From: Parcubacteria group bacterium
Lineage (GTDB): Bacteria > Patescibacteriota > Minisyncoccia > Minisyncoccales > JAQTPW01
Direction of reading: 5' to 3'
Assembly (NCBI GenBank): GCA_043813215.1
Contig: JBDRLH010000018.1
Coordinates: 1 to 41,878, forward strand
Length of the DNA stretch: 41,878 bases
In this document: piece after piece, positions 6,348 through 41,766 of the stretch
Layout of the letters: the number at the start of each line of letters is the position of its first letter
Position numbering within the stretch: the stretch's first letter is position 1
The notes under the pieces: generated by a model
The model's database searches: none
Told to the model about the DNA's origin: nothing
Seen by the model: only the letters and a program-made list of their open reading frames with translations
Position numbers and translations under genes: made by a program

Positions 6348-6836
6348 ATGAAAAGAAAAAATAAAAAAATTATTGTTGCTACGAGCGGCGGGTTTGACCC
6401 CGTCCATATCGGGCACACAAGATTATTCCAGGAAGCCAAATCCCTTGGCGACGAATTGGTGGTTATTTTGAATAATGACAATTGGCTAAAACAAAAGAAA
6501 GGCTTCGTGTTTATGTCGGAAAAAGAGCGGAAAGAAATTATAGAGGCATTCAAACCCGTTGATAGAGTCATCGTCACTAGGCATTACTCAAACACTAAAG
6601 ACATGAGCATATGCGCCGAATTGGCCGATTTAAAGCCGAACATTTTCGCTAAAGGCGGCGACAGGGACAAAAAGGACGCCGACAACAAATCTTCTTCTCT
6701 CAATCCGGAGCAGGCGCTATGCCAAAGATTAGGCATTAAAATAGTTTTTAACGTCGGACGGGGCGGAAAAATTCAATCAAGCTCTTGGTTGACAAAGAGA
6801 TTTCCCGAATCAATAAAGCGATTTTTTGAAATATGA
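6348..6836 (+). CDS. HIGH-motif nucleotidyltransferase (cytidylyl/adenylyltransferase-like; TagD / RfaE domain II family)
   Basis: ATSGGFDPVHIGHTRLFQEAKSLGDELVVIL carries the literal HIGH signature and the G-x-FD-x-x-H-x-GH pattern of the CTP_transf_like family. Length is 162 aa. Substrate is unknown. Confidence 0.6.
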   Translation: MKRKNKKIIVATSGGFDPVHIGHTRLFQEAKSLGDELVVILNNDNWLKQKKGFVFMSEKERKEIIEAFKPVDRVIVTRHYSNTKDMSICAELADLKPNIFAKGGDRDKKDADNKSSSLNPEQALCQRLGIKIVFNVGRGGKIQSSSWLTKRFPESIKRFFEI

Positions 6837-7600
6837 TCGTATCAAAAAATGAATCCGTCGGCATACTGGGTTTTGGTGAAATAGGCCAAGCCATGGCGGA
6901 ATTTTATGATTCGGCCGATGCACCACGGATAAAAATTAAGGATTTAAACAGAGATGACGACTTAAGGGACGTAAAAATTCTTCATGTTTGTATTCCTTGG
7001 AGCGAAAAATTCGTGCAGATAGTGAAAAATGAAATTAAAAAAGCAAAACCGGCTTTGACAATTATACATTCCACTGTGGCGCCTGGGACAACCCTTCGGC
7101 TCGCTCAGGGCAAGCAAAAAACAATGGTGGTTCATAGTCCAGTAAGAGGGGTTCACCCGCATCTTTTTGAGGGGATTAAAACTTTTGTAAAATATATCGG
7201 CACCGATAATAAAGAGGCGGGAAAATTAGCCCAAAAGCATTTAGAAAATTTAGGCATTAAAACAAAGGTTTTTATGCCGGCCGCCACCACTGAAATTGGA
7301 AAACTCCTGGATACCGCCTATTACGGACTTTGCATCGCCTGGCACGGAGAAATGAAGAAAATTTGCGATAAATTAGGGATAAATTTTGAAGAAGCAGCTT
7401 CTGATTTTAATCAGACCTATAACGAGGGATACAAAAAATTAAGAAAAACCAACGTTCTGCGTCCAGTTTTATATCCGCCAGAAAACGGCATCGGCGGCCA
7501 TTGCGTGATATCTAATGCTGGGATTCTTAAAAAATATTTTAAAAGCGAAGCCTTGAATTTGATTTTAAAATATAAACCCAAAAATAAATCTAGGAGATAA
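6833..7600 (+). CDS. Short NAD-binding dehydrogenase related to the UDP-glucose/GDP-mannose/UDP-ManNAc dehydrogenase family
   Basis: ATGA start/stop overlap with the upstream gene. Rossmann motif GFGEIG near the N-terminus. GIGGHCV resembles the catalytic-Cys GGHC motif of WecC/Cap5O-type sugar dehydrogenases. At 255 aa it has no room for the usual C-terminal domain. Confidence 0.4.
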
Positions 7601-7601
7601 T

Positions 7602-8663
7602 ATGAATAACGAAAAAAGGAAAAAAGCTTTTATCACGGGAATCGGCGGACAAGACGCTTCTTATTTGGCGGAGTTGCTTTTACATAAAGGCTATGAAGTC
7701 CATGGTACAACCAGGTGGGACAGCGTTTTTATTAATAAAAGAATAGAGCATCTTTTCCAGGATCCCCATATTCATGGGGCGCGCCTTTTCCCTCATTACA
7801 GCGATATCACAGACACGGGAAACCTTGAAAGGCTGATTAACCAAATTCAGCCCGATGAGGTTTATCATCTGGCGGCCATGTCTCATGTCAGAGTGAGCTT
7901 TGATATGCCCGAATATACCGCCAACACCGATGCCCTGGGAACTTTGCGGGTTTTGGAAGCGATCAAGAATTCCGGGCTTCCCATAAAGTTCTATATGGCG
8001 GCGAGCTCAGAAATGTTTGGCAGTTCTCAACCCCCCCAGAATGAAAACACTCCCTTTTATCCAAGAAGTCCGTACGCTTGCGCCAAAGCGTTTTCATATT
8101 ACATTACCAGAATGTACAGGGAGGCCTACGGGATTTTTGCCGTCAACGGCATATTGTTTAATCACGAAAGTCCGCGCCGGGGAGAAACTTTTGTCACAAG
8201 GAAAATTACCAGGGCAGCGGCCAGAATAAAAGCCGGTCTTGATAAAAAAATTTATTTAGGCAATCTGGACGCCAAAAGAGATTGGGGCTTTGCCCCCGAA
8301 TACGTTGAGGCGATGTGGCTTATGCTTCAAAAGGATAAATCCGATGATTTCGTCATAGCCACCGGCGAAGCTCACTCCGTCAGAGAACTTTTGGAAGAAG
8401 CTTTTTTATATAGCGGCTTGGGCGACTGGCAGAAATACGTCGAAATTGATCCCAGGTATTTCAGGCCCGCCGAAGTGGAAATTTTGATCGGCAGTGCCCA
8501 AAAAGCCAAGGAAAAAATCGGCTGGGCGGCTAAGGTTAAATTTAAAGATTTGGTACGAATAATGGTCGATGCCGATTTTAGGGCGACAGGGTTGGAAGCG
8601 CCGGGAGAAGGAGATAAAATTTTAAAAGAAAAATTTCCCGATAAATGGTGGGGGATTGATTAA
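7602..8663 (+). CDS. gmd: GDP-mannose 4,6-dehydratase
   Basis: [29 protein letters not shown]-terminus, [28 protein letters not shown] (YxxxK), and [17 protein letters not shown] are all hallmark Gmd motifs. AGGAG RBS upstream. Length 353 aa. Confidence 0.9.
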
Positions 8664-8670
8664 AAATTAA

Positions 8671-9138
8671 ATGATTAGCAAAAATCTATATAAAAAAATT
8701 CAAGAAGTAATTCCGATTTGTTGCGTAGATGTCGTTATTAAAAATGATAAAAAGGAACTCTTGTTATTAAAAAGAAAAAATGAGCCGGCAAAGGGTGAGT
8801 GGTGGATTGTCGGAGGACGGATAAAAAAAGGAGAAACGCTCAGGAAGGCTGTTTTTCGCAAGGTAAAAGAAGAGACCGGATTAAACGTTGTTTTAAAGGG
8901 AATTTTAGGAGTCGGCCCCACTGTTTTCAAAAAAGGAATTTTTGGACAAAGCGTTCATACAATCAATATTGTTTTTTTAACTCTGGCAAAAAGGAAAGAT
9001 AAAATAAGGCTAGATTCCCAAAGCAGTGATTATAAATGGTTTAAAAAAATCAATCGGAACTGGCATCCTCATCTTCAAAAATTCTTAAAATTAGGCCTTC
9101 AAGCAAAGCGAAATTTGTGTTTTGGCCGAATAGGCTAA
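8671..9138 (+). CDS. Nudix hydrolase, GDP-mannose mannosyl hydrolase-like (Gmm/NudD/WcaH type)
   Basis: Nudix box GGRIKKGETLRKAVFRKVKEETGL (G-x5-E-x7-R-x-U-x-EE-x-G-U). Its position directly after gmd matches colanic-acid-type gmd-fcl-gmm clusters. Confidence 0.6.
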   Translation: MISKNLYKKIQEVIPICCVDVVIKNDKKELLLLKRKNEPAKGEWWIVGGRIKKGETLRKAVFRKVKEETGLNVVLKGILGVGPTVFKKGIFGQSVHTINIVFLTLAKRKDKIRLDSQSSDYKWFKKINRNWHPHLQKFLKLGLQAKRNLCFGRIG

Positions 9139-9160
9139 TTTCAAGTTTGCCCTTACTTTC

Positions 9161-10441
9161 ATGGAATATTATAAAAACATAAAAAAATGCCGGATTTGCG
9201 GCTCCAAAGACCTGATCGAAGTTATTCATATTGCCCCTCAATATCTGTCGCCAACCTTTGTAAGGACCAATGAGAAAAACGAACTATCAAAGATTAAAGT
9301 GCCTCTAACCTTGACCTTTTGTGACTGCAAAAGAAACCTCGACGGCTGCGGGCTTCTTCAATTAAAAGAAACCGTTAATCCGGATCTTTTATATAAGAAT
9401 TATTTTTACAGAACTGCCGTGAGTAGTACTATGTGCGAGGATTTACACGAGGTTGTAGAGGATGTTTTAAAGCATGTAAAATTGAATGACGGTGATTATG
9501 TTATTGATATCGGCGCCAATGACTGCACAATGCTGGGCTATTTTCCGTCTTCCTTGAATCGCATAGGGGTGGAACCCGCTAAAAATATTGATTTGAGCAG
9601 CCTCGACCCGTCAATAAAATTTATTAATGACTATTTTTCTAAAAAGACCGTTGAGAATGCTATCAGAAAGGGCTCTGTCAGAGCAATAACCTGTTGCGCA
9701 ATGTTTTATGATCTTGATGACCCAAACAGTTTTGTTTCTGATATTAAATCAATTCTGGCTCCGGACGGGATATGGTGCATTCAGCTCAGTTATTTGCCGC
9801 TTATGCTGAAAAATATGAATTTCTATGATATCTGTAATGAACATCTGGAATATTATTCACTTCATACATTAAAAAATCTGATGAAGCGTCACAGCCTTTC
9901 CATTTTTGACGCCTCGACTAATAATGTTAACGGCGGGAGTATCCGAGTATTTATCAGCCATACTGGAAACAATTATAAACCATCTGTCAATCTGGAGAGA
10001 CTTTATATGGAGGAAGAAAGAATGAACCTCTATGATGCAGCAACTTACAAAGATTTTTATAAAAAAATTTTAGATCTGAAGAATAAAGTCAATAATGTCA
10101 TAACCAAAGAGATAAACAAAGGAAACCTGGTGCTCGGTTTGGGAGCTTCGACCAAAGGGAACGTATTGTTGCAGCTATTCGGCATTACAAAAGAAATGCT
10201 TCCTTATATAAGCGAGAGAAACCCGGAAAAAGTTGGACTGAGAACCTTGGGAACCGATATAGGGCTTATTTCAGAAGAGGACGCCAGAAAACTAAACCCC
10301 AGTTATATGTTGGTGCTCCCCTGGTATTTTAAAAAAGAAATCGTAAAACGCGAAGTAGATTATTTGCGGCATGGCGGAAAACTACTGTTTCCGATGCCAT
10401 ATCCTCATATTGTTGACAAAAACGGAGAAACAAATTTATAA
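9161..10441 (+). CDS. NDP-hexose C-methyltransferase (TylCIII/TcaB9-like; Zn-ribbon + class I SAM MT + C-methyltransferase C-terminal domain), copy 1
   Basis: N-terminal CRICGS...C-x-C...C-G zinc-binding module, [18 protein letters not shown]-binding [19 protein letters not shown], and C-terminal [11 protein letters not shown]...[10 protein letters not shown] 426-aa paralogue lies at 37651-38931. Confidence 0.7.
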
Positions 10442-10454
10442 AAAACTTATAATT

Positions 10455-11414
10455 ATGGACTCTTTATCAAAAAATTATTTAACAAACAAAAAGATTTTAG
10501 TTACCGGCGGCGCAGGCTTTTTAGGAAATTTCATTATTAAAAAACTTTCAGAGCGCGGAGTGCCAAAAGAAAATATTTTCATACCTTTATTTGAAAATTA
10601 TGATTTAAGAAAAATGGAAAACTGCCTGAAAGTTGTTGAAAATCAAGATATTGTAATTCATTTGGCCGCTAAAGTCGGAGGCATTGAATATAGCAGCAAG
10701 AATCCCGGGCAGATGTTTTATGACACTGCCATCATAGGCATCCAATTAATGGAAGCCGCCAGGCAGGCAAATGTAAAAAAGTTCGTTGCCATTGGATCAG
10801 TTTGCGCCTATCCGAAATTTACTCCGGTACCCTTTAAAGAAGAAGATCTTTGGTCGGGCTACCCCGAGGAAACCAATGCCGCCTACGGGATAGCCAAAAG
10901 AGCGCTTCTAGCTCAAGCCCAAGCTTATCGAAACCAATACGGATTTAATGCCGTTTATCTTATATTGGTAAATCTATACGGTCCGGGTGATAATTTTGAC
11001 CCTCAATCTTCCCACGTTATTCCGGCTTTGATCAAAAAAGTTTATGAGGCCAAAAGCCAAGGAAAAAATTATATCAAAGTTTGGGGTTCAGGCAAGGCAA
11101 CTAGAGAATTCCTGTATGCCGAAGACGCCGCAGAGGGCATCTTGCTGGCTACTGAAAAATATAACAAATCAGAGCCGGTTAATTTGGGCACAGGCAAAGA
11201 AATTCCCATTAAAGAATTGGCTGAATTAATTTGCAGAATAATGGATTTTGGAGGCGAGATTCGTTGGGATGCCGCAAAACCAGACGGCCAGCCCAGACGT
11301 TGTTTGGATGTTTCTAAAGCTGAAAAAGAATTCGGCTTTAAAGCTGCCATGCCATTCAAAGAAGGTCTGAAAAAAATCATTGATTGTTATGTGGAAAACC
11401 ATGAAACTAAATAA
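10455..11414 (+). CDS. GDP-4-keto-6-deoxy-mannose epimerase/reductase family (GDP-L-fucose synthase Fcl / GDP-L-colitose synthase ColC-like), copy 1
   Basis: The ORF track begins at 10371, but ATG 10455 (MDSLSK...) follows the upstream stop. [11 protein letters not shown] Rossmann motif, GSVCAYP (Cys aligned with E. coli GMER C109, nt 10803-10805), YGIAK (YxxxK), NLYGPGDNF...SSHVIPALI (His aligned with H179), and [14 protein letters not shown]. Confidence 0.8.
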
Positions 11415-12204
11415 CTCCGAATTTTTTAAATTGGAGATTATGATAACCGATTTCTGCAATTTAGATTGCCGACTATGTTCTCAGGGAATTCCCTTAATGA
11501 AAAATAAAAAAATTATATCTTTGGATGATTTAAAGAGAATGAGCAAGCTTGTGGAGCCGTTTGAATTCCACACCGTCAAGATTTGCGGGGGCGAGCCGAC
11601 ATCTCATCCTCAATTCGAAAAGATTTGCGACAATCTCAAGAGACTATTTCCTGCCGATTACTATTATTTGGCAACAAACGGTTTTTGGTTAGAGAAATTT
11701 ATCAATCAGATAAAAGTATTTAATATTATTGAATTGAGTCACTATCCTGGGAAAAATGATGAGATATTCGAGAAGTTAGCAAAACTGAAGATCCCCAATT
11801 TGGCGGCCATAAGAAAAAAAGAATATCAAGAGATAATGGATGTTTATCAAGAAAATAATTTAAACAAAACCGATATTTATAAAAGATGTCCCTATAAAGA
11901 AATACAAATTGTTCAAGACAGGATATATACTTGCTGTAATATATTTGGCCAGGCCATGCGCCAGAACATTGATCTTGATAAAATTAGCGTCCTTTTTGAT
12001 GAAAATTGGCGGCAAAACCTATCCAAAATTGACATAGAGCCTTATTGCCAGCGCTGTTTTATAGATGTGCCCGGGCCTGCCAGAGTTGCTCTATATGAGA
12101 TCGAAACAGGAATCGGGCGCTGGCTGAAAAAGAATTTTAAACCACTAAGTAAACTCATCCGCTGGTTAAAAATTCAAAAGCGGCAAATTAAAAGCAATAA
12201 TTAA
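11401..12204 (+). CDS. Small radical SAM enzyme with a C-terminal Cys-rich (twitch-like) region
   Basis: CNLDCRLC (CX3CX2C, nt 11455-11478), then GGEP, and C-terminal ...RIYTCCN... and CQRCF. These parallel the DGEVRMCC / CARCE motifs of the two larger paralogues. Start taken at ATG 11401, which overlaps the fcl-like stop; the track start 11380 is also possible. Confidence 0.65.
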
Positions 12205-12221
12205 AATCATAAGAAATTAAT

Positions 12222-13535
12222 ATGGCAGACATTAAAGTTAAAATCCAAAAAGAAATAAATAATCTGGTCAAAAAATATTTTTCTTTACCCGGGGAAAATT
12301 TTATTTCAAAAAAAATAAAAATTCCTTTGAATATCCCTACTTTTGGCTGGCAGGAAGTCAATGAAGCCATAGACTCTTTGCTTTCAACCTACGTTACCAT
12401 GAATGAAAAGGTTTATAGGTTTGAAGATATGTTCGCAAAATATCTAGGAGCAAAGCATGCCGTAATGGTGAATTCAGGATCTAGTGCAAACCTCATAGCT
12501 TTGTCTGTTTTAAGCAACCCGACTGTTAAAAACCGGATAAAGCCGGGTGATGAAATAATAACTCCGGCCGTAACCTGGTCAACTACCGTTTTTCCGATTA
12601 TTAACGTCGGGGCAAAGCCCGTTTTAGTAGATGTAAATTTAAATGATTTTAGTATAAATCCCGAATTAATTGAAAAGGCAATTACTAAAAAAACAAAAGC
12701 CATAATGCCTGTTCACCTTCTGGGAAATCCAGCCGACATGACAACTATTATGAAAATTGCCAAAAAACACGATTTATTCGTCATAGAAGACGCTTGCGAA
12801 GCCCATGGAGCACAACATTATGGAAAAAAGGTTGGAACTTTTGGTGATATGAGCACTTTTTCGTTTTTCTTTTCCCATCATATCAGCACAATAGAAGGAG
12901 GCATGGTGGTGACTAATAATGATGAATATGCTGAATTGGCAAAAATGCTTAGGGCACACGGCTGGATTAGGGAATTAAAAGATAAAGGAAAAATCGCCAA
13001 AAAATATAAAAAAATACACAAAAACTATCTGTTCGTAAACATTGGCTACAATCTCAGGCCAACCGCCCTGCAGGGAGCTTTTGGGATTCATCAGATCGGA
13101 AAGCTGGAAAATATTATAAAAATTAGGAGAAAAAATGCTGATTTTTGGTCCGATAAACTTTCAGAATATTCAGATTATCTGATGTCGCCCCAAAAAAAAG
13201 AAAAAAAAGGCGAAAGAAGGGTTTGGTTTGGTTACCCAATTATTATTAAAGAAAGAGCGGGATTTAATCGAAAAGAGCTAACCGATTTTTTAGAAAGCAA
13301 AGGTATCGAAACTCGGCCGATTATGGCTGGTAACTTGGCTGAGCAACCAGCCATGAAACTATTTAATTATCGGATAGCTAGCAGACTGGATAATTCCGAA
13401 ATCATTATGAAGAAAGCTTTCTTTTTTGGCAATCACCAGGGCGTCAGGAAAATAGAAAAGGAATATTTGGTGAGATGTTTTGTTCAGTTTTTGAAGCAGA
13501 AAAGTAAATTACGAAATAGATATGAGAATAAATAG
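12222..13535 (+). CDS. PLP/PMP-dependent NDP-4-keto-6-deoxyhexose 3-dehydratase (ColD / E1 RfbH-DdhC type) of the DegT/DnrJ/EryC1 family
   Basis: NSGSSANLIAL, VIEDACEAHG and FSFFFSHHISTIEGGMVV. Aligned with PseC in this same window (LSFHPVKTITTGEGGMVL), the Schiff-base Lys is replaced by His (H219/H220, nt 12876-12881). That substitution is the signature of the 3-dehydratase subgroup. Length 437 aa with only two Cys. Confidence 0.65.
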   Translation: MADIKVKIQKEINNLVKKYFSLPGENFISKKIKIPLNIPTFGWQEVNEAIDSLLSTYVTMNEKVYRFEDMFAKYLGAKHAVMVNSGSSANLIALSVLSNPTVKNRIKPGDEIITPAVTWSTTVFPIINVGAKPVLVDVNLNDFSINPELIEKAITKKTKAIMPVHLLGNPADMTTIMKIAKKHDLFVIEDACEAHGAQHYGKKVGTFGDMSTFSFFFSHHISTIEGGMVVTNNDEYAELAKMLRAHGWIRELKDKGKIAKKYKKIHKNYLFVNIGYNLRPTALQGAFGIHQIGKLENIIKIRRKNADFWSDKLSEYSDYLMSPQKKEKKGERRVWFGYPIIIKERAGFNRKELTDFLESKGIETRPIMAGNLAEQPAMKLFNYRIASRLDNSEIIMKKAFFFGNHQGVRKIEKEYLVRCFVQFLKQKSKLRNRYENK

Positions 13536-15967: not shown

Positions 15968-15971
15968 AAAT

Positions 15972-32166: not shown

Positions 32167-32217
32167 CACAAAGAGTTCTGTATTTATTCAACAGCGGACT
32201 ATAAAAATATAAATGAA

Positions 32218-32895: not shown

Positions 32896-33577
32896 TATTT
32901 TAGTAATTGCCGCCCATCCTGATGATGAAGTCTTGGGATGCGGGGGAACAATAGCAAAATATGTAAGAGAAGGCAGCAAAGTTTATTGTCTTTTTTTGGG
33001 TAGAGGCAAGGCCTCAAGGAATTTCGGTAAAAAACCTATTTTTATTAAAAAAGAACAAATAATTTTAGAAAAAGAAACCCAAAAAGCCGCTAAGATTTTA
33101 GGGATTTCCGAAATATTTTTTGAAAATTTTCCCGACCAGCAATATGACCGCGTTCCTCTTTTGAAAATTGTTAAAGCAATAGAGAAACTAAAAGAAAAAA
33201 TAAAGCCAGAAATAGTTTTCAGCCATCATTCCGGCGATCTTAACAAAGATCACCGACTCACCTGCGAGGCAGTAATGACTGCTTTTCGACCGCTTCCTAA
33301 AGAGAAAGTCAAAGCTATTTATTTTTTTGAAACCCCATCCTCAACCGAGTGGGGCATTCCCAAAAGAAAAAATTATTTTGCGCCAAATATTTTTATAGAT
33401 ATTTCCAACGTTTTCCAAAAAAAGAAAAAAGCCCTTCAGGCCTATAAAAGTGAAATTAGATCCTACCCCCATCCTCGTTCTCTCAGGGGCATAGAAATTA
33501 TTGCTAGGCGATGGGGAATGGCCTCCGGTAAAAATTTAGCAGAAGCTTTTGAATTATTAAGAGAAATTAAAGATTAA
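32885..33577 (+). CDS. LmbE/PIG-L family N-acetyl-sugar deacetylase
   Basis: ILVIAAHPDDEVLGCGGTIAKY (AHPDDE zinc motif) and HHSGDLNKDH. Start could be 32873 or 32885; both overlap the upstream gene. Confidence 0.75.
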   Translation: MKNNILVIAAHPDDEVLGCGGTIAKYVREGSKVYCLFLGRGKASRNFGKKPIFIKKEQIILEKETQKAAKILGISEIFFENFPDQQYDRVPLLKIVKAIEKLKEKIKPEIVFSHHSGDLNKDHRLTCEAVMTAFRPLPKEKVKAIYFFETPSSTEWGIPKRKNYFAPNIFIDISNVFQKKKKALQAYKSEIRSYPHPRSLRGIEIIARRWGMASGKNLAEAFELLREIKD

Positions 33578-33581
33578 TTTT

Positions 33582-34034
33582 ATGATTTCTTTAAGAAAAA
33601 TAAATTTTTATGACATTGAATTGTTATGGCATTTAAGAAACCAACCGGATGTTTATAAATATTTTCGTCAAAATCGGCGGGTTTCTTGGGAAAAACACAT
33701 CAAATGGATAATGCCGATAATTTTGGGGATGGCAAAAAAAGATTTTTTCATGATTCAACACGAATCACTGCCAATTGGACAGATCCGTTTTGATTATCAG
33801 AAAAACAAGGAAGCCAAAGTAAGCATTGCTATTTTAAAAGAATTTAGGGGAAGGGGAATAAGCAGAGAAAGTTTTAAAAAAGCTGTTAAATTAGTCAAAA
33901 AAGAAAAGAAGTTAAAAACTATTATAGCCGAAGTCCATAAAAACAATATTCCTTCCCAAAGATTCTTTGAAAAATTAAATTTTAAATTAAAAGAGAAAAA
34001 AGGAAATTGGTTGAAATATACGCAACATTTTTAA
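33582..34034 (+). CDS. pseH: GNAT N-acetyltransferase, PseH-like
   Basis: LRKINFYDIELLWHLRNQPDVYKYF...SWEKHIKWI matches the PseH-type N-terminus. RGRGIS is an acetyl-CoA-binding motif. Located immediately upstream of pseI. Confidence 0.55.
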   Translation: MISLRKINFYDIELLWHLRNQPDVYKYFRQNRRVSWEKHIKWIMPIILGMAKKDFFMIQHESLPIGQIRFDYQKNKEAKVSIAILKEFRGRGISRESFKKAVKLVKKEKKLKTIIAEVHKNNIPSQRFFEKLNFKLKEKKGNWLKYTQHF

Positions 34035-34046
34035 AAAATAAAAAAA

Positions 34047-35105
34047 ATGAACAAAATTAGATTTAAAATTGGCAACAGAACGGTAGGGGTCGATTATCCG
34101 GTTTTGGTTATAGCTGAAGTATCGGCCAATCACAACGGAAGCTTAAAAAGGGCAAAGGAAATAGTAAAAACCGCCTGTGAGCTCGGAGCAGGAGCCATTA
34201 AAATTCAGACCTATACCGCCGATACCATGACTTTGCCTTCGGATAAAGAACCGTTTCAAATCAAGGTTAATCCTGCCTGGAAAGGAAGAACATTATACGA
34301 TCTTTATGAATCAGCCTACACGCCATGGGAATGGGACGCCGAGTTAAAGCAAGTAGCGGAGAGTTATGGCATCCCCCTTCTTTCTACTGCTTATGATGAT
34401 GCGTCGGTAGATTTTCTGGAAAAATTGGGAGTTCCCGCTTATAAAATTGCTTCTTTTGAAAATACCGATTTAGAGCTTCTAAAGAAAGTGGCTCAGACCA
34501 AAAAACCGGTGATTATCTCTCGAGGAATGTCTACTTTAGCCGAATTGACTGAAGCCATTTCGACTTTGCGAAAAAATGGCGCTCCAGATATCGCAGTCTT
34601 GCATTGCGTCAGTTCTTATCCGGCCAAACCCGAAGAGATGAACCTTGCCACTATTTCTGATATCGGGGAGAGGTTTAAGGTGGTGCCCGGCCTTTCGGAT
34701 CACACTATCACTACCTCCACCGCCGTGGCGGCGGTAGCCCTGGGAGCCTGCATTATTGAGAAACACTTTACCTTAAGAAGGGCTGACGGTGGATTTGATG
34801 CCGCTTTCTCCTTAGAACCAAAAGAATTTGAAGAACTGATAAAATCTGTCAAAGATATAAAGAAAGCTTTCGGAAAAGTTTCCTATGAAGTGGGGAGCGG
34901 CGAGTCGGAGAACATTGTTTTTAAAAGGTCGCTCTGGGTGATAAAACCGATTAAAAAAGGAGAGAAATTTACAAGAAACAATGTCGGTCGTTTTCGTCCC
35001 GGCAACGGCTTGCCCGTTAAATCCCTGTCGCAGGTTTTAAGTAAAGTTGCCAAGAGGAATATAACAGCTAATACTCCAATGAGCTGGGATTTAGTTGAAG
35101 AATAA
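34047..35105 (+). CDS. pseI: Pseudaminic acid synthase (NeuB family, with C-terminal SAF domain)
   Basis: VIAEVSANHNGSLKRAKEIV, AIKIQTYTADTMTL.SDKE.F.IK, LYDLYESAYTPWEW, YKIASFE, GLSDH, IEKHFTL. The IKIQTYT and LY.LYE..TP.EW blocks match C. jejuni PseI better than NeuB, as recalled from memory. Confidence 0.8.
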   Translation: MNKIRFKIGNRTVGVDYPVLVIAEVSANHNGSLKRAKEIVKTACELGAGAIKIQTYTADTMTLPSDKEPFQIKVNPAWKGRTLYDLYESAYTPWEWDAELKQVAESYGIPLLSTAYDDASVDFLEKLGVPAYKIASFENTDLELLKKVAQTKKPVIISRGMSTLAELTEAISTLRKNGAPDIAVLHCVSSYPAKPEEMNLATISDIGERFKVVPGLSDHTITTSTAVAAVALGACIIEKHFTLRRADGGFDAAFSLEPKEFEELIKSVKDIKKAFGKVSYEVGSGESENIVFKRSLWVIKPIKKGEKFTRNNVGRFRPGNGLPVKSLSQVLSKVAKRNITANTPMSWDLVEE

Positions 35106-35112
35106 AAATTTT

Positions 35113-35787
35113 ATGAAGGTAAGTATTGTTATCCGAGCCTATAATTCAGAAAAAACTATTAAAAAAGCGGTGAATAGTGCATTAAGCCAAGATTTTCCCA
35201 AAAAGGAGCTTGAAGTTATCGTTATTAATGACGGTTCAACCGATAAGACTTTAAAGATTTTGAAAGATTATAAAAAGAAAATTCGCTTGATCAGCCAGAA
35301 AAATCAAGGAGCAATTCCTGCGGCCAACCGAGGGTTTATGGCGGCCCGAGGAGAATATATTATTTTATTGGATTCTGATGATTTTTTTAAACCAACAATT
35401 TTGAAAGAAATGGTTGCAATTTTAGATAAAAATCCAAATATCGATTTTGTTTACTGTGATTATTATGAGAAAAGTCCCAGAGGAAATATAAAAATTATTT
35501 CAACTAAGAATATTTTTAATACAATAGCCGGTGGAATAATCTTCAAAAGAAGAAAATTAGCAAAAGAAGGATTTTATAATGAAAGGATTAAATTTGTTGA
35601 GTATGATTTGCTACTTAAGACTCAAAATAAGTGGAAGGGGTGTCATATTTCTAGACCTTTATTTTATTATGTCAGAAGAAAAGAGAGTATAGCCAGCAAC
35701 AGAAAGTGGCTGAAAAAAGCCCTGGCCGAATTAAAAAAATTGCATCCTCAAAAAATCAAAGAAATTAAAAAAATCAGAAAATATTAA
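35113..35787 (+). CDS. GT2 family glycosyltransferase
   Basis: The track ORF starts at 35095 inside pseI; ATG 35113 is preferred. VSIVIRAYNSEKTIKKAVNSALSQDFPKKELEVIVINDGSTDKT and LLDSDD (DxD). Confidence 0.75.
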   Translation: MKVSIVIRAYNSEKTIKKAVNSALSQDFPKKELEVIVINDGSTDKTLKILKDYKKKIRLISQKNQGAIPAANRGFMAARGEYIILLDSDDFFKPTILKEMVAILDKNPNIDFVYCDYYEKSPRGNIKIISTKNIFNTIAGGIIFKRRKLAKEGFYNERIKFVEYDLLLKTQNKWKGCHISRPLFYYVRRKESIASNRKWLKKALAELKKLHPQKIKEIKKIRKY

Positions 35788-35798
35788 TTTTTTCGTTT

Positions 35799-36650
35799 AT
35801 GCTAACTATTGCCACTGTCCCCAAGCCGTTTAAAAATCCGCATATAAACATTATTCAGCGGAATGCCATTCAAAGCTGGTTGCTTCTTGAACCCCGGCCA
35901 CAAGTAATTTTATTCGGCAATGATGAGGGAATAGCCGAAGCGGCGAAAGAGTTTGGGGTTTTGCATGTTCCAGAAATTGAAAATGAGTTTGGCATTCCTC
36001 TTCTAAACCGCGTATACAGTTTGGCTCAAAAGGCATCATCCGGTCGGTTTGTCGCTCATATCAACACCGATATTATTTTAATGAGCGATTTTATGAAAGC
36101 TCTCGGCTCAATTAAGTTCGCTTCGTTTTTGATGACCGGCAGGAGATGGGATATAAACATTAAAGAACCAATTCAATTTAAGGAGACTGATTGGGAGAAA
36201 AGATTTCGTCAAAGGCTTATCTTAGAGGGGAAATTACACGGACTAGCTGGCGTGGAATATTTTGTTTTCCCTCGGAATCTGGATCTTAATCTGCCGCCTT
36301 TTGTTGCCGGTCGTCCTGGATATGACAACTGGCTTGTTTATAAAGCCAGATCTAGCAATATACCGGTCATTGATGCAAGCAAGGTTGTAATAGCTGCGCA
36401 TCAAAACCATGATTACAGTCATCGTGCGGGAGGAGAAAAGGGTATTTTGAAAAAAGCAGAAGGTAAACGAAATATTAAATTAGCCGGTGGTTTCGCTAAA
36501 ATGTTAACTCTCCGAGACGCTGACTGGGTTCTTACTCCACAAGGTGTAAAAAAACCAGAATTCCCGAGGAGAATCTTAAGCAAATTATCATTGTTTTATC
36601 CCTGGAGAATTTTATTATCGATTAAACGGAAAATACAAAATACCATCTGA
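35799..36650 (+). CDS. Hypothetical protein, possibly a GT-A-like nucleotide-sugar transferase
   Basis: 283-aa ORF tightly packed between GT genes. HINTDIILMSDF may be a DxD-like segment. No family was recognised. Confidence 0.3.
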   Translation: MLTIATVPKPFKNPHINIIQRNAIQSWLLLEPRPQVILFGNDEGIAEAAKEFGVLHVPEIENEFGIPLLNRVYSLAQKASSGRFVAHINTDIILMSDFMKALGSIKFASFLMTGRRWDINIKEPIQFKETDWEKRFRQRLILEGKLHGLAGVEYFVFPRNLDLNLPPFVAGRPGYDNWLVYKARSSNIPVIDASKVVIAAHQNHDYSHRAGGEKGILKKAEGKRNIKLAGGFAKMLTLRDADWVLTPQGVKKPEFPRRILSKLSLFYPWRILLSIKRKIQNTI

Positions 36651-36710: not shown

Positions 36711-37646
36711 ATGATCAAGTTAAAAGATAAAAAAATTTTGCTTACGGGCGGGTCGGGCTTTATTGGAAAACACATTATTAATAATTTGGTTCAAAAACGC
36801 AACGTACCGCGAGAAAATATTTTTGTTCCCACCATCAAGGAATATGATTTGAGAGAATTGAAAAATTGCCAGAAAGTGGTTGGAAATCAAGACATTGTCA
36901 TCCATCTGGCTGCCGTAACCGGAAATATTGAACTGCACAGACTGCATCCCGGCAGAATTTTTTACGATAATATTATAATGGGTATCCAGCTTGTGGAGGC
37001 AGCCAGGATTGCCGGAATCGAGAAGTTTATAGGAATAGGCAGTGTCACTGCTTATCCTGAAAAAGCCACATCACCTTTTAAGGAAGAGCAGTTCTGGGAT
37101 GGGTATCCGGCAAAAATTCATGCCCCTTATGGTTTTGCCAAAAAAATGTTGTTGGTTCAGGGGCAGGCTTATAGAGAAGAATATGGTTTCAATGTCATTC
37201 ATTTATTATTGACCAGTGTTTATGGGCCGGGAACAAATCCCCAAAGCGGCTATGTAATTTCTTCAATAATTGAGAAAATTCAGAAGGCAAAAAAAGAGGG
37301 CAGGAATTTTATTGAGGTCTGGGGAACAGGAAAGCCAATAAGGGATTTTCTTTATGTTGAGGACGCGGCCGAGGGGATTATTTTGGCAACAGAAAAATAC
37401 GATAGACTCGAACCGATGAATATCGGATCAGGCATAGAGATTTCAACTAAAAATTTGATTAATTTGATTTGCGAATTAATGGATTTCAAAGGCGAAATTC
37501 GTTGGGATGCCACAAAACCTGATGGCCAGTTAAAAAGAATGATAGATGTTTCCAAGGCTAAAAATGAACTCGGCTTTACCGCTTCCACGTCTCTTGAGGT
37601 AGGATTAAAGAAAACCATTGAATGGCATTTGAAAAATTTAAAATAA
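36711..37646 (+). CDS. Fcl/GMER-family SDR, copy 2, lacking the epimerase Cys/His dyad (predicted reductase-only or altered chemistry)
   Basis: ILLTGGSGFIG, YGFAK (YxxxK), KPDGQLKRMIDVSK. GSVTAYP has Thr113 (nt 37047-37049) where copy 1 and E. coli GMER have Cys. GPGTNPQSGYVISSI has Tyr181 (nt 37251-37253) in place of His. Confidence 0.7.
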   Translation: MIKLKDKKILLTGGSGFIGKHIINNLVQKRNVPRENIFVPTIKEYDLRELKNCQKVVGNQDIVIHLAAVTGNIELHRLHPGRIFYDNIIMGIQLVEAARIAGIEKFIGIGSVTAYPEKATSPFKEEQFWDGYPAKIHAPYGFAKKMLLVQGQAYREEYGFNVIHLLLTSVYGPGTNPQSGYVISSIIEKIQKAKKEGRNFIEVWGTGKPIRDFLYVEDAAEGIILATEKYDRLEPMNIGSGIEISTKNLINLICELMDFKGEIRWDATKPDGQLKRMIDVSKAKNELGFTASTSLEVGLKKTIEWHLKNLK

Positions 37647-37650
37647 AATT

Positions 37651-38931
37651 ATGGCAACGAATATTTCCAAAACAATAAAAAAGTGTCGGGTCTGTGGTTC
37701 AAAAAATATAATTTCCCTTCTTTTTTTAGGACGTCTTCATATTTCAAATTTTATTGATAATAAAGAAGGCAATCATAAAATAAAAAAGATAGGCAGGCAA
37801 CCTCTTGAATTGGTAATGTGCAATCCTGATTTAAAGGGTTGCGGATTGATTCAATTAAAGCATACGTGCTCACCAGAACTACTTTATAGGAATTATTGGT
37901 ATCGTTCAGGCGTTAATCGGAGCATGACAGAGGCCCTTTCAGACATCGCTCAAAAAGCAGAAAAAATAGCAAAACCTAGAAGCGGTGATTATATTATTGA
38001 TATCGGTTCTAACGATGCGACTCTTTTCTGTTTCTATAAAACTAAAAATCTTAATCTTGTTGGCTTTGAACCGGCTAGAAATCTTATGTCTTACGCTAAA
38101 AAGAATTGTCCCGCAGGCAAATATATTAATGATTTCTTCAGTTTCAAAGCTTGGCAAAAAAAATTTTTTGGCAAAAAAGCCAAAATTATAACAGCTATCG
38201 CCATGTTTTATGATTTAAACAATCCCAATGAATTTGTTTCCGATATAGTTAAATGTTTGGATAAAAAAGGAGTGTTTATTATCCAGATGAGTTATTTGCC
38301 GTCAATGCTCCAGCAGAATGCCTTTGATAATATTTGTCACGAACATTTGGAATATTATTCGCTCACCTCCCTGAATAATCTGTTAAAAAGACACGGATTA
38401 GAAGTCTTTGATGCAGAATTAAACGATATCAACGGCGGAAGTTTCCGTATCTACATTCAGTACAAGGGATATAGGCCGATAAATAATCGTGTTCATAAAT
38501 TAGAGAAACTAGAAGAGAGATTAAAGCTCTCCAGTAAAAAAACCTATAAAATCTTTGCCTCAAGAATTTTCGCTCTAAGAAAAAAAATAAATAATTTCAT
38601 AAAAAACGAAACTCGGCTGGGCAAACGAGTTTATATTTATGGTGCTTCGACCAAGGGCAATACCCTTTTGCAATTCTTTAATTTAAACAAGGATTTAATA
38701 AAAGCAGCCGCTGACCGAAATCTCGACAAATGGGGTAAAAAAACAGTAGGCACTTTAATTCCTATTATTTCTGAAGAGCAGGCCCGAAAAGAGCGTCCGG
38801 ATTACTTTCTGATTCTTCCCTGGCATTTTTTGAAAGAATTTATTCAACGCGAAAAAGACTATCTTAGGTCAGGAGGAAAATTTATTGTTCCTCTGCCGCA
38901 ATTTAAAATTATCAGCAAGAAAGATTTATGA
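37651..38931 (+). CDS. NDP-hexose C-methyltransferase (TylCIII/TcaB9-like), copy 2
   Basis: CRVCGS...C...GCG zinc module, [54 protein letters not shown]. 426 aa, the same length as copy 1. Confidence 0.7.
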   Translation: MATNISKTIKKCRVCGSKNIISLLFLGRLHISNFIDNKEGNHKIKKIGRQPLELVMCNPDLKGCGLIQLKHTCSPELLYRNYWYRSGVNRSMTEALSDIAQKAEKIAKPRSGDYIIDIGSNDATLFCFYKTKNLNLVGFEPARNLMSYAKKNCPAGKYINDFFSFKAWQKKFFGKKAKIITAIAMFYDLNNPNEFVSDIVKCLDKKGVFIIQMSYLPSMLQQNAFDNICHEHLEYYSLTSLNNLLKRHGLEVFDAELNDINGGSFRIYIQYKGYRPINNRVHKLEKLEERLKLSSKKTYKIFASRIFALRKKINNFIKNETRLGKRVYIYGASTKGNTLLQFFNLNKDLIKAAADRNLDKWGKKTVGTLIPIISEEQARKERPDYFLILPWHFLKEFIQREKDYLRSGGKFIVPLPQFKIISKKDL

Positions 38932-40487
38932 AAGCTGTAATTATTATTCCAACCTATAATGAAAAAGAAAATATTGCCCAGATCGTTTCAGAAATTTTTG
39001 AATTATTGCCGGGAATTTCTATTTTGGTCGTAGACGACAATTCTCCCGATGGCACAGCTGATATTGTTAAAAATTTGCAAAAAGACTTTCTGAATTTATC
39101 ACTATTGTTAAGAAATAAAAAAGAGGGTTTGGGCAGGGCATATATAAATGCATTTGAAGAAATATTGAAAGACAAAAATGTCAAAAAAATTGTGATGATG
39201 GATGCTGATTTTTCTCATAATCCCAAATATTTGCCAGAAATATTAAAAACAGCTGATAATTTTGATGTTGTTATCGGCTCCCGATATATAAACGGAGGAA
39301 AAACGGAGGGTTGGGAACTGTGGCGGAGAATTTTAAGCAGGGGAGCCAATTTTTATTGTCAGCTCGTAACCCATCTTCCGATTTTCGATTATACCTCCGG
39401 TTTTAATGTGATTAATACCAATTTTTTAAGAAAAATTGATTTTTCGAAAATCAATATTTCAGGATACGCCTTTTTAATAGAGCTTAAGTATTTATTGTGG
39501 AAAGAAGGTGCTTCTTTAAAAGAAGTTCCGATAGTATTAAAAAATCGTTTCGGGGGAGAATCAAAGTTTTCGGGCCACATCATCAATGAGGGAATTTTAG
39601 CTCCTTGGAAGATGATTTTCAAAAAAATAAATAAAGAGTGTCCCTTATGTAATAAAAAAACTGCTGTTTTTTTTACCCAGAAAAAATCTTATACTTTTTA
39701 CAAATGCAAAGATTGTGGCTTGATTTTTATTTTCCCAATGCCCGAAAATCATTTAAAAATATATTCCCAGGATTATTTTACTGGTGCTAAAAAAGGTTTT
39801 GGATATGTGGACTACGAGGTTGATAAAAAAGCGATGTCCGCCACCCTCAATTCTTATTTAGATAAAATAGAAAAATTCATATCAAAAAATGGCAAGCTCC
39901 TGGATGTCGGCGCTGCCACCGGTTTTTTTATGGAGTTGGCAGAAAAAAGGGGATGGAAGGTTCAGGGATTAGAAATTTCCGAGTACGCCGCCAAAAAAGC
40001 CAGAGAAAAAGGTTTGGATGTGGCAACTGGAACCTTAGAAAACGCTAATTTTAAGGAAGATTATTTTAATTTGATTACTTTTTGGGATGTTGTTGAACAT
40101 TTGTCGGGCCCCAAATCGACATTGTCATTAGCTTACAAAATTTTAGAAAAAGATGGGATAATAGCCATCAATACTCCGGACTCGGGAAGTTTTATTGCCA
40201 AGTTTCTTAACAAAGGCTGGCACCTATTGGTTCCGCCAGAACATTTATTTTTATTTAATTCAAAAAATCTCAGTAGCGTATTAAAAGAAATTGGTTTTGA
40301 AATATTATTTGTCGGCAAAATTGGGAAAAAATTTACCTTGCAATATGCAATTCAAATATTAGCTAATAAACAAAAATTCTTTGTTTTCGATTGGCTGGCA
40401 AATTTTTTCAGAAATAACTTTTTAGGTAAATTGATTATTCCGTTTAGTCTGGGAGATAATTTTTTCGTTTTAGGATATAAAAAATAA
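38928..40487 (+). CDS. Fusion protein: Dpm1/GtrB-like polyprenol-phosphate glycosyltransferase (GT2) + Zn-ribbon + class I SAM methyltransferase
   Basis: aa 1-230: VIIIPTYNEKENI, ILVVDDNSPDGT, MMDADFSHNPKYLP. From aa 238 (nt ~39636): CPLC...CKDCG, LLDVGAATGFFM, FNLITFWDVVEHL. ATGA overlap with the upstream gene. Confidence 0.7.
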   Translation: MKAVIIIPTYNEKENIAQIVSEIFELLPGISILVVDDNSPDGTADIVKNLQKDFLNLSLLLRNKKEGLGRAYINAFEEILKDKNVKKIVMMDADFSHNPKYLPEILKTADNFDVVIGSRYINGGKTEGWELWRRILSRGANFYCQLVTHLPIFDYTSGFNVINTNFLRKIDFSKINISGYAFLIELKYLLWKEGASLKEVPIVLKNRFGGESKFSGHIINEGILAPWKMIFKKINKECPLCNKKTAVFFTQKKSYTFYKCKDCGLIFIFPMPENHLKIYSQDYFTGAKKGFGYVDYEVDKKAMSATLNSYLDKIEKFISKNGKLLDVGAATGFFMELAEKRGWKVQGLEISEYAAKKAREKGLDVATGTLENANFKEDYFNLITFWDVVEHLSGPKSTLSLAYKILEKDGIIAINTPDSGSFIAKFLNKGWHLLVPPEHLFLFNSKNLSSVLKEIGFEILFVGKIGKKFTLQYAIQILANKQKFFVFDWLANFFRNNFLGKLIIPFSLGDNFFVLGYKK

Positions 40488-40494
40488 CCCTTCC

Positions 40495-41766
40495 ATGATA
40501 AATATTTCGAAAATTTTTATAAAAATAGATAATTTATTTAAGAACAAAAAGATTTTACTCCTGATTTGTCTTCTTCTTCTATCTTTTCAATTATGCTACA
40601 GTTTTCTTTATCCTACTCACGGACCTAGGGGCAAGGCCTGGCTGTCTCTCCCTGACTTGATTTCCCATGAAAAATCTCCGCTTGATGCTTCCGAAGGGCT
40701 GCTAATTACTAAAGCCTACGGACTTTTAAGTAATTATTATATCAATGCCGACGGGGGGCAATATCTGCTTTTAGCTAATAATTTCCCCAATTATTATATC
40801 GGAAACAATCCCGTTATTTTAGACAGGCCGTTTTATTCTTTTTTAATTGCCGTTATCGCTTTTTTGCCACGCTTATTCTTTGATTCTTATGCAACGCTTT
40901 TTGCTTCGGCAATTTTTCTTAATTTTATTCTGGGTTTCTTTTCGGTTGTATTATTTTACTATCTTTGTGAAAAATTAATCAGTTCCCGAGTGGCTCTCCT
41001 GTCGTCCTTACTGTTAATTTTCTCTCCATATTTTCATTTTTGGCTAGTCCAACCCGTGCCGAACATATTTACCATTTTTATAATTGTAGCCACTCTTGTT
41101 CTCTTGGAAAAATATATTAAAAATCCATCAAGTCTTAAGCTTATTGTTTTCTCTTTGATTATCGGCGTGTTTATGTTGGGGAAAATGATTTTTGCCATGC
41201 CGATTTTTATTCTTTTCTCTGCTTTTTATTTCAAGAGATACAAGGAGGGAATAATATTTTTAATAATTCACTTGATTCCTCTGATTTTTTGGTATTTATT
41301 TGTTGTAACAAAGCTCGGAATACCTTATTACATCAATGAAGCAGATTACGGTGTGGGCGTATGGTTGCTTGATGCTTTTCATTCTCCGTGGTATAAAACT
41401 TTTGAAATCTTCCTTAGTGTTTTGCCCCAGTTTGTCTATGTAGTAATTTATGCGTTTTTATTGATACCGGTGATTTTTAGCATCTTCGGTTTCAAAAAAC
41501 TGATTTTTAAAATCGGGCACTTTTTTGCTTTGAATTTTATTCTTTCTTTCTTGATATTATTATTTATAATGAATCTTTATTCCCCGCGTTATGGATTTTT
41601 TCTTTATCCCATAGTTTATCCTTCTGCCGTTTTGGGGATAGACCAAATAGCGGAATTTTTTAAAAAATATAAAAATTGGTATTCCGCAGTTTTTTATTTA
41701 GTGGTATTTATATTTTTAATAGTCATTTCTAATGCCGATATTTATAAAATTTTTCCCTACGGATAA
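40495..41766 (+). CDS. Polytopic integral membrane protein, candidate GT-C-type glycosyltransferase or glycan polymerase/ligase
   Basis: 423 aa, hydrophobic throughout with roughly 10-12 helix-length segments. The first loop contains acidic PLDASEG. It immediately follows the polyprenol-phosphate-sugar synthase fusion. No family was recognised with confidence. Confidence 0.35.
   Translation: MINISKIFIKIDNLFKNKKILLLICLLLLSFQLCYSFLYPTHGPRGKAWLSLPDLISHEKSPLDASEGLLITKAYGLLSNYYINADGGQYLLLANNFPNYYIGNNPVILDRPFYSFLIAVIAFLPRLFFDSYATLFASAIFLNFILGFFSVVLFYYLCEKLISSRVALLSSLLLIFSPYFHFWLVQPVPNIFTIFIIVATLVLLEKYIKNPSSLKLIVFSLIIGVFMLGKMIFAMPIFILFSAFYFKRYKEGIIFLIIHLIPLIFWYLFVVTKLGIPYYINEADYGVGVWLLDAFHSPWYKTFEIFLSVLPQFVYVVIYAFLLIPVIFSIFGFKKLIFKIGHFFALNFILSFLILLFIMNLYSPRYGFFLYPIVYPSAVLGIDQIAEFFKKYKNWYSAVFYLVVFIFLIVISNADIYKIFPYG

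Follow-up and report, generated by a model that had tools for sequence, protein, structure and literature searches.

The stretch examined here (the window) is one whole contig of 41,878 bp from a metagenome-assembled genome (MAG) of the Parcubacteria, within the Candidate Phyla Radiation (CPR, or Patescibacteria). It carries the gene for a 1275-residue secreted surface protein and, downstream on the same strand, a large cluster of glycan-biosynthesis genes (Table 1). The contig ends allow no reading of the flanks. The listing of open reading frames (ORFs) and the table of gaps agree on 34 plus-strand ORFs in unbroken series from 6348 to 41766, and all minus-strand ORFs of at least 90 residues are nested inside plus-strand genes. 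Neighbouring ORFs overlap by 4 nt (ATGA) at 6833 and 38928, by 14 nt at 13522 and 14999 and by 26 nt at 31396, and just three of the 33 intergenic gaps exceed 25 nt (43, 51 and 60 nt). An earlier note on this DNA had described the same packing, with the same overlaps and with gaps mostly below 25 nt, and its figures prove exact. Four longer apparent overlaps (-71, -158, -55 and -35 nt) are products of the longest-ORF rule, because they vanish when the in-frame ATGs at 10455, 20011, 28700 and 35113, each 1-13 nt past the preceding stop, are taken as starts. A further ORF from about 41836 runs off the contig end, and the 35.4 kb of the cluster is therefore a lower bound.

The neighbouring surface protein is secreted, wall-anchored and rich in Thr and Ser, as had been claimed; it has a signal peptide, a peptidoglycan-binding domain and a Ser plus Thr content of 24.5%, compared with a mean of 9% in the other proteins of the window. 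Its isoelectric point is 4.64, its mature mass 124 kDa, and it contains three Cys residues. The NCBI entry is 'hypothetical protein ABIG40_01505', and the 344 homologues, nearly all from CPR, are named 'peptidoglycan-binding' or 'beta strand repeat-containing'. Named homologues come mostly from Paceibacterota, Nealsonbacteria, Spechtbacteria and similar groups, with a few filed under unrelated phyla. Homologues in MAGs of Planctomycetes, Aminicenantia, Desulfobacteraceae, Gammaproteobacteria and Syntrophales (L011, L012, L034, L064 and L084, also P0006 and P0108) have a CPR-type sigma/DUF5667 context, and these are probably cases of binning contamination by CPR contigs. In composition and architecture the 1275-residue protein resembles S-layer proteins; it is the candidate S-layer-type protein and the putative glycan acceptor. 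The GC content is about 0.48 in the surface-protein gene (1-4000) against 0.30-0.36 in the middle of the cluster (13000-28000) and 0.30-0.39 across it, a fall to which the Ala/Gly/Thr-rich make-up of the protein contributes and which is also compatible with horizontally exchanged glycan modules.

Table 1. Features of the window and of the equivalent upstream region in related loci (L numbers)
Feature	Position	Strand	Basis and remarks
1275-residue secreted surface protein	107..3934	+	Signal peptide, coiled coil, PG_binding_1-like domain, ~1000 residues of beta-rich repeats
Intrinsic-terminator-like hairpin	4007..4027	+	9-bp stem (7 GC pairs) then T run; 3' of surface-protein gene stop
577-residue secreted HExxH protein, C-terminal coiled coil and PG_binding_1	4073..5806	+	Weak Peptidase_MA_2 match; motif LAHEFVHLI
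86-residue HTH_17 (excisionase/MerR-like) DNA-binding protein, cluster head	5990..6250	+	Pfam HTH_17, E = 7e-11
162-residue cytidylyl/adenylyl-transferase-like protein and 255-residue short nucleotide-sugar-dehydrogenase-like protein (6833-7600)	6348..7600	+	Pfam/NCBIfam
GDP-sugar module A: Gmd, NUDIX, C-methyltransferase, Fcl-like, radical-SAM, RfbH/ColD-like PLP enzyme	7602..13535	+	Pfam/NCBIfam
Wzx-type MOP flippase, polytopic	13522..15012	+	Polysacc_synt E = 4.8e-34, 118.5 bits; many predicted transmembrane segments
Module B, first part: SDR epimerase/dehydratase, radical-SAM/SPASM, CTP_transf_3 cytidylyltransferase, GT2-cytidylyltransferase fusion, DAHP/Kdo8P-synthase-family aldolase	14999..20009	+	Pfam/NCBIfam
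Module B, second part: SAM methyltransferase (probable start 20011), AsnB-type glutamine amidotransferase, second radical-SAM/SPASM	19852..23992	+	Pfam/NCBIfam
557-residue CPR-specific GT-B-fold protein	24006..25679	+	AlphaFold (AF2) model, fold comparison
SAM methyltransferase, middle of the trio 24006 / methyltransferase / 26505	25691..26497	+	Pfam
395-residue CPR-specific GT-B-fold protein	26505..27692	+	AF2 model, fold comparison
Pseudaminic-acid module (latter part of module C, which runs from 24006): PseB, PseC (probable start 28700), B12-radical-SAM methylase-type, cytidylyltransferase, formyltransferase-like, PIG-L deacetylase, PseH-like GNAT, PseI	27717..35105	+	Pfam/NCBIfam
Module D, first part: soluble GT2 (probable start 35113) and 283-residue protein (35799-36650)	35095..36650	+	Pfam/NCBIfam, transmembrane prediction
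Module D, second part (terminal block): second Fcl-like, second C-methyltransferase, GT2/methyltransferase fusion (38928), PMT_2 GT-C (40495)	36711..41766	+	Pfam/NCBIfam, transmembrane prediction
Start of a further ORF, clipped by contig end	41836..41878	+	Relatives carry more glycan genes at the equivalent point
ECF sigma/DUF5667 module in relatives	L001 5482-6822; L002 8500-9765; L006 8445-9712; L007 8625-9818; L008 8453-9772; L010 8404-9744		5' of surface-protein homologue

Glycan clusters recur downstream of surface-protein homologues

Gene order around homologues of the surface protein was read in seven annotated neighbourhoods (homologues 32-53% identical) and in a scan of one genome per species, in which 292 relatives came up and 80 loci were retained (surface proteins 29-54% identical). 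The scan was seeded with the N-terminal 330-residue alignment, the full-length protein being too divergent, and the downstream flank is thus only about 7 kb; ORFs in the flanks were labelled by BLASTP against the window proteins and reference glycan genes. In all seven annotated neighbourhoods a glycan cluster lies within about 4 kb after the homologue's stop codon, with either no gene or one to three small or wall-protein genes in between. Their common order is an HTH_DeoR-like gene, an ECF sigma factor, DUF5667, the surface protein, optionally the 577-residue protein or a Wzy_C-TPR protein together with HTH_17, and then a co-directional glycan cluster. Of the scanned loci, 37 have a homologue of full length and no less than 5 kb of sequence after it. 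Within about 7 kb downstream, 21 of these carry two or more glycan genes, two carry a single one and 14 none, whereas none of 42 loci had two or more upstream (Fisher p = 1.7e-9 for downstream versus upstream, with shared ancestry uncorrected).

Directly 5' of the homologue, nearly all annotated relatives and 26 of the 37 loci carry genes for an ECF-type sigma-70 factor and a DUF5667 protein, usually after a weak HTH_DeoR-like gene, and this arrangement suggests that the coat protein is under sigma/anti-sigma control; a literature search on DUF5667 returned nothing relevant. The window begins just 3' of the point at which relatives carry this module.

The flanking genes are kept while the sugar genes vary. 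At L001 the surface protein is 53%, the 577-residue protein 72% and the HTH_17 protein 67% identical to those of the window, and the sugar gene set is different, the cluster starting with a UDP-sugar dehydrogenase, a GFO oxidoreductase, a hexapeptide acetyltransferase, DegT, Wzx, a 2-epimerase and AsnB. In Paceibacterota STC_63 (JAQTZP010000002.1) a cluster of at least 33 kb begins 2.9 kb past the homologue, after Wzy_C-TPR and HTH_17 genes, and contains the 24006 / methyltransferase / 26505 / PseB / PseC module; the Wzy_C-TPR protein, of 788 residues, directly follows the surface protein there. Of the 37 loci, 11 have a Wzy_C-TPR gene on the downstream side of the surface-protein gene, and at L010, an annotated Paceibacterota locus, it is the very next gene. 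Judged by gene order, the locus behaves as a surface-glycan locus that keeps its site but changes its content, and the large wall-anchored protein is its conserved partner. It is mainly this synteny, reaching across the group, that makes the cluster of interest, as an slg-like locus in CPR.

Sugar-biosynthesis modules

Families were assigned by Pfam and NCBIfam profile searches of the window proteins, and genes are named here by their ORF starts. The GDP-, UDP- and CMP-sugar chemistry named in the earlier note is borne out by four proteins that exceed their equivalog cutoffs: Gmd (489 bits; cutoff 415), PseB (TIGR03589, 466.6; cutoff 407.75), PseC (TIGR03588, 472.1; cutoff 423.5) and PseI (TIGR03586, 439.8; cutoff 340.25). 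The AsnB, Wzx and PMT_2 assignments likewise reach or exceed their curated cutoffs. Domains that use S-adenosylmethionine (SAM) number nine, in four radical-SAM enzymes and five methyltransferase domains.

Next to Gmd, module A encodes a NUDIX protein that resembles GDP-mannose mannosyl hydrolase, a sugar C-methyltransferase (Methyltransf_13/14), an Fcl-like reductase/epimerase with a probable start at 10455 and a pyridoxal-phosphate (PLP)-dependent 3-dehydrase/aminotransferase of RfbH/ColD type that scores below the RfbH cutoff (369 bits; cutoff 423). Its product would be a C-methylated 6-deoxy or 3,6-dideoxy GDP-hexose. The second Fcl-like protein and C-methyltransferase, in module D, are 57% and 46% identical to these counterparts. 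Module B would make a CMP-3-deoxy-ulosonic acid, with amidation chemistry. In it, a GT2 domain is fused to a PseF/KdsB-like cytidylyltransferase domain (17781-19160), and because of this fusion the activation and transfer of an ulosonic acid may take place in one polypeptide.

In the pseudaminic-acid module, the PseH-like GNAT protein is below cutoff (56.7 bits; cutoff 93.1), as is the match to PseF, found in the C-terminal domain of 17781 (55.6; cutoff 205.7), and two CTP_transf_3 proteins are present. No protein of the window matches a PseG profile, 26505 being a candidate by its GT-B fold alone.

The radical-SAM/SPASM and cytidylyltransferase proteins jointly span the 'spiro-SPASM' model TIGR04321, a fused family of no known function. 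The radical-SAM/SPASM proteins correspond to the C-terminal half of the model and the CTP_transf_3 proteins to the N-terminal half (15972-17788, and 22964-23992 / 31396-32166); the second radical-SAM/SPASM enzyme is 70% identical to 15972. That the halves are separate genes within a glycan cluster hints that spiro-SPASM proteins act on CMP-sugars.

Three smaller proteins complete the set. The 255-residue protein at 6833-7600 matches just the central part of nucleotide-sugar dehydrogenases; it was considered as a pseudogene, and this was ruled out because homologues of similar length (244-246 residues, 64-67% identical) are conserved at the equivalent position in L007 and L010, which makes it a distinct short family. 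The 283-residue soluble protein (35799-36650) has no Pfam, NCBIfam or PDB match. Homologues 50-54% identical to it occur within GDP-sugar modules at L010 and L094, which makes it a candidate for a new enzyme of sugar tailoring. At L009 a Methyltransf_23 gene lies between the homologues of 24006 and 26505, the place taken here by 25691, and is not detectably similar to 25691 in tblastn.

Flippase and glycosyltransferases

Pfam supports both the Wzx flippase and the GT-C-like membrane protein that had been recognised from the sequence (for the latter, PMT_2 at 29.8 bits, with a gathering score of 26.1, and about 11 predicted transmembrane segments), and these two are the only polytopic proteins predicted in the window. 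GT2 domains, of which at least four had been claimed, are detectable in just three proteins, 17781, 35095 and 38928. The polyprenol-phosphate-sugar synthase of the same note has a candidate in the N-terminal GT2 domain of 38928, directly 5' of the GT-C gene. Its best NCBIfam matches are of the expected kind (AglJ, 55 bits against a cutoff of 325; PpgS; Dol-P-hexose transferase; ArnC), but all fall far below cutoff. The GT2 protein 35095 was rejected for this role, having no transmembrane helices and generic GT2 matches only. No small flippase of GtrA or ArnE/F type is encoded in the window.

Two further proteins may be transferases on the strength of their predicted folds. Protein 24006 has no Pfam match at default settings and a faint match to Capsule_synth (E = 0.027); its family comprises 57 homologues, of which the named members are all from CPR and some carry PF05159. 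The AlphaFold (AF2) model (pLDDT 90.6) gives its top TM-scores against the beta-Kdo transferase domain of WbbB, and this fold match together with the faint Capsule_synth match makes 24006 a candidate CMP-ulosonic-acid (Kdo/nonulosonic-acid-type) glycosyltransferase. Protein 26505, with no Pfam match, has 37 homologues, and its family co-occurs with that of 24006 on the same contigs. The fold of its AF2 model (pLDDT 88.4) matches UDP-GlcNAc 2-epimerases and a polysialyltransferase at TM-scores of ~0.5, its gene is directly 5' of PseB, and it is a candidate PseG-type UDP-sugar hydrolase or nonulosonic-acid transferase. Both assignments draw on fold similarity, at TM-scores of about 0.5. Sequence searches of the PDB with the surface protein, 24006, 26505, 35799 and the GT-C protein gave nothing usable, and the surface protein has no sequence relative there.

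Continuation of the cluster in relatives

A metagenome scan with the GT-C protein as query found five related contigs. The block of Fcl-like, C-methyltransferase, GT2-methyltransferase and GT-C genes is kept in L091-L094 at 67-85% identity. Past the GT-C gene, L094 encodes a 123-residue EamA/SMR-like membrane protein (also present after GT-C in L095), a DPM/AglJ-like GT2 and a second PMT_2 GT-C, followed by a 332-residue GT2 with two C-terminal transmembrane helices, a methyltransferase and a 197-residue Bac_transf protein; NeuB and DegT genes come later. The Bac_transf protein, 4.4 kb beyond GT-C, is a phosphoglycosyltransferase (TIGR03025, 214 bits). The statement of the earlier note that no initiating transferase, Wzy, Wzz or export gene is present holds for the window only; at L094 an initiating transferase is encoded further on. 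Because L094 has Bac_transf beyond GT-C, the lack of such a gene in the window is most simply explained by the contig end, of which it is probably an artefact. Among the pseudaminic-acid and NeuB genes of L094 there are also E1 alpha and beta subunits of a thiamine-pyrophosphate-dependent 2-oxoacid dehydrogenase (16321-19561), which may supply an unusual N-acyl group for a nonulosonic acid.

A proposed model for glycosylation of the surface protein

Taken together, these genes can be read as a system for protein O-glycosylation centred on the adjacent 1275-residue protein, a reading to which we give about even chances. Cytoplasmic enzymes would make two GDP-6-deoxyhexose derivatives (colitose- or fucose-like and C-methylated), a CMP-pseudaminic acid tailored by formylation, amidation or methylation, and probably a CMP-3-deoxy-ulosonic acid. 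A Bac_transf-type phosphoglycosyltransferase encoded past the contig end would start an oligosaccharide on a polyprenol carrier, the GT2 and GT-B transferases would build it up, and Wzx would flip it across the membrane. The GT2/methyltransferase fusion would make a polyprenol-phosphate sugar from which GT-C adds a sugar outside the membrane, and the glycan would finally be O-linked to envelope protein, foremost the 1275-residue protein. The gene families, their close packing on one strand, the cut at the contig end and the conserved linkage are observed, whereas we infer the identities of the sugars, the order of the steps and, above all, the acceptor. Because Parcubacteria have no lipopolysaccharide (LPS) genes (PMC5220378), protein or wall is the plausible acceptor. 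Glycosylation of flagellin was discarded, as there are no Maf or flagellar genes.

Linkage and analogy support S-layer glycosylation, with the 1275-residue protein as candidate acceptor. Of the surface-protein glycosylation system put forward in the earlier note, the multi-pathway glycan locus, the S-layer-like neighbour and the linkage all stand, but the window lacks a Wzy_C oligosaccharyltransferase and the adjacency is not universal. Several observations weigh against this interpretation. Pfam and transmembrane scans of the window revealed no Wzy_C O-oligosaccharyltransferase of WsaB/WsfB type, Pfam, NCBIfam and transmembrane scans no Wzy and likewise no Wzz, and the Pfam scan no initiating transferase of WsaP/WsfP type. 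The PseH, PseF, RfbH, DAHP-synthase-like and AglJ-like domains are each below their curated cutoffs. A terminator-like hairpin lies between the surface-protein gene and the cluster, so that the two appear to be transcribed separately and the former is probably monocistronic. A look-up of cluster members gave no link of the 1275-residue family to the predicted Patescibacteria S-layer proteins of 10.1101/2024.05.28.596244. Finally, the flank that could be read shows at most one glycan gene in 16 of the 37 loci, about 9-10 of which are clearly unrelated neighbourhoods. The loci with none carry, by Pfam, HisRS, an M16 peptidase, an AI-2E transporter or FtsA, from which it follows that some lineages truly lack the adjacency; L012, L033, L041 and L080 among them are limited by flank length. 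The synteny check that the earlier note had suggested therefore has two sides, a strong downstream bias and, in about 9-10 of 37 loci, the protein without the cluster.

In one alternative, the product of the cluster is a glycopolymer of the envelope that is not attached to protein, such as a secondary cell-wall polymer, capsule-like polysaccharide or lipoglycan, and is borne on peptidoglycan or lipid, its place next to the surface protein reflecting the grouping of envelope genes or an interaction between polymer and protein layer, as at the S-layer and secondary cell-wall polymer loci of Firmicutes. We consider this rather unlikely. The Wzx architecture and the Bac_transf of relatives are generic to polysaccharide synthesis, Wzy_C proteins need not be protein oligosaccharyltransferases but can serve as polymerases or ligases, GT-C/PMT_2 relatives such as ArnT are generally known to act on lipids, and both the apparently separate transcription and the sizeable minority of relatives without adjacency fit a polymer. 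However, neither the window nor the annotated related neighbourhoods contain an LCP ligase, Wzz, Wzy, ABC exporter or Wza-type gene. The surface protein is anchored through PG_binding_1 and not through the SLH or CWB2 modules that need a secondary cell-wall polymer, and the Wzy_C proteins bear TPR domains and are encoded past the surface-protein gene, at L010 with no gene between.

A general protein O-glycosylation system, with other exported proteins such as type IV pilins as main targets and the adjacent protein as one substrate or none, seems improbable. Pseudaminic-acid glycans on pilins and flagellins and general O-glycosylation (Neisseria, Tannerella) are well established, and GT-C enzymes such as TfpW can glycosylate pilin. 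Type IV pili are encoded in CPR genomes (PMC5220378). Yet there is no pilin or pilus gene in the window, the annotated relatives offer only a weak T4SS_pilin match about 10 kb upstream in L002, and the gene that has a conserved place beside the cluster is that of the large surface protein, not of a pilin. A chance adjacency, in which the cluster would be an island gained horizontally and functionally unrelated to its neighbour, is disfavoured and in our view very improbable: the drop in GC from about 0.48 to 0.30-0.39 and the mosaic gene content would suit such an island, but low GC and mosaicism are also typical of variable glycan loci at fixed sites, such as O-antigen clusters, and the adjacency recurs over many species-level lineages with the downstream bias given above.

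O-glycosylation of the surface protein may extend beyond this contig. Parcubacteria/Paceibacteria would then share a dedicated envelope locus in the order ECF sigma, DUF5667, a major peptidoglycan-anchored S-layer-type protein, a Wzy_C-TPR oligosaccharyltransferase and/or HExxH protein, HTH_17 and a hypervariable glycan cluster, and their coat protein would bear O-linked glycans, specific to the lineage and heavily methylated, of deoxyhexose, pseudaminic acid and ulosonic acid. We advance this wider picture tentatively, at somewhat less than even odds.

Comparison with known systems

Nearest in kind are the slg loci of Geobacillus and Paenibacillus, which adjoin the S-layer gene and use an O-oligosaccharyltransferase of Wzy_C type. 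As in Geobacillus stearothermophilus NRS 2004/3a, Paenibacillus alvei and Aneurinibacillus thermoaerophilus, a cluster of nucleotide-sugar and glycosyltransferase genes lies here close downstream of the gene for a large, acidic, Ser/Thr-rich surface protein, with assembly predicted on a lipid carrier and, in related CPR loci, a downstream gene of the Wzy_C family (WsaB/WsfB class). The present locus differs in its phylum, its PG_binding_1 anchor, a cluster two to three times larger, nine SAM-using domains, the pseudaminic- and ulosonic-acid chemistry, the GT-C step and a window that contains neither Wzy_C nor an initiating transferase.

With the O-glycosylation locus of Tannerella forsythia, whose S-layer glycan ends in a modified pseudaminic or legionaminic acid, and the flagellin islands of Campylobacter and Helicobacter, it shares a CMP-pseudaminic-acid pathway with methyl, formyl or amido tailoring enzymes. 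Unlike these it has no Maf-type transferases, no flagella and no PseG (possibly replaced by 26505), its PseH and PseF are recognisable at family level only, and it has extra radical-SAM/SPASM and B12-radical-SAM enzymes. The arrangement of an AglJ/PpgS/ArnC-like GT2 directly before a PMT_2 GT-C recalls polyprenol-phosphate-sugar/GT-C systems (Haloferax AglD/AglS and AglJ; mycobacterial PpgS/Rv3779 and Ppm1/Pmt; ArnC/ArnT/ArnEF; GtrABC), and the small EamA/SMR-like protein after GT-C in L094 is of similar size and family to ArnE/F. Here, however, the GT2 is fused to a SAM methyltransferase, has no C-terminal transmembrane helices and scores below the cutoffs.

Wzx/Wzy O-antigen and capsule loci such as galF-gnd of Enterobacteria share the fixed position and flanks, the swapped sugar genes, the low GC and Wzx, whereas this group has no lipid A or LPS machinery, the window has no Wzy or Wzz and the conserved flank consists of ECF sigma, DUF5667 and the surface protein. 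At pilA-tfpO an oligosaccharyltransferase-like gene stands beside its presumed target, a parallel to the Wzy_C-TPR gene next to the surface protein.

Envelope formation and structure in CPR were called unclear in a 2017 genome paper (PMC5220378). S-layers in some Patescibacteria/CPR species are noted in passing in a 2026 review that does not mention glycosylation (PMC13293708), and a preprint predicts Patescibacteria S-layer proteins of 1131-1274 residues by AlphaFold (10.1101/2024.05.28.596244). No paper returned by full-text literature searches describes, for CPR, a locus that glycosylates S-layer or surface proteins, or the presence of nonulosonic acids. If the wider reading of a shared envelope locus is true, CPR would have its first S-layer glycoprotein system defined by genetics, one that is likely to determine how these episymbionts attach to hosts and evade phages. 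For an envelope so poorly understood, a conserved locus that joins a candidate coat protein to variable glycan genes offers a concrete, testable handle on which protein forms the surface layer, whether it is glycosylated and with what, and whether glycan variability follows host range or phage pressure. The unexplored sugar chemistry comprises two CPR-specific GT-B families, split 'spiro-SPASM' pairs, the GT2-cytidylyltransferase fusion and a GT2-methyltransferase fusion that would feed GT-C.

Spacer genes and anchoring

Rfam and tRNA scans of the window gave no match, and neither did exact-sequence look-ups of the GT-C and 577-residue proteins, whose start codons probably differ. The 2.4-kb spacer between the surface-protein gene and the cluster holds the genes for the 577-residue HExxH protein, whose true start is probably an ATG a few codons inside the ORF, and the 86-residue HTH_17 protein. 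The anchoring module of the HExxH protein (coiled coil and PG_binding_1) is 36% identical over 137 residues to that of the surface protein, and the protein may be a protease that works in processing from an anchor in the wall. L001, L007 and L008 have a homologue after the surface protein, and so do 13 of the 37 scanned loci. The HTH_17 protein is a candidate regulator; its gene recurs at the equivalent position at L001, L007 and L010, and 9 of the 37 loci have it. At L004 (1054-6657 and 10001-13906) the surface-protein homologue is without the coiled-coil and peptidoglycan-binding N-terminus and has a sortase and a CLIPPER-repeat protein nearby, a hint that this lineage anchors the protein in another way.

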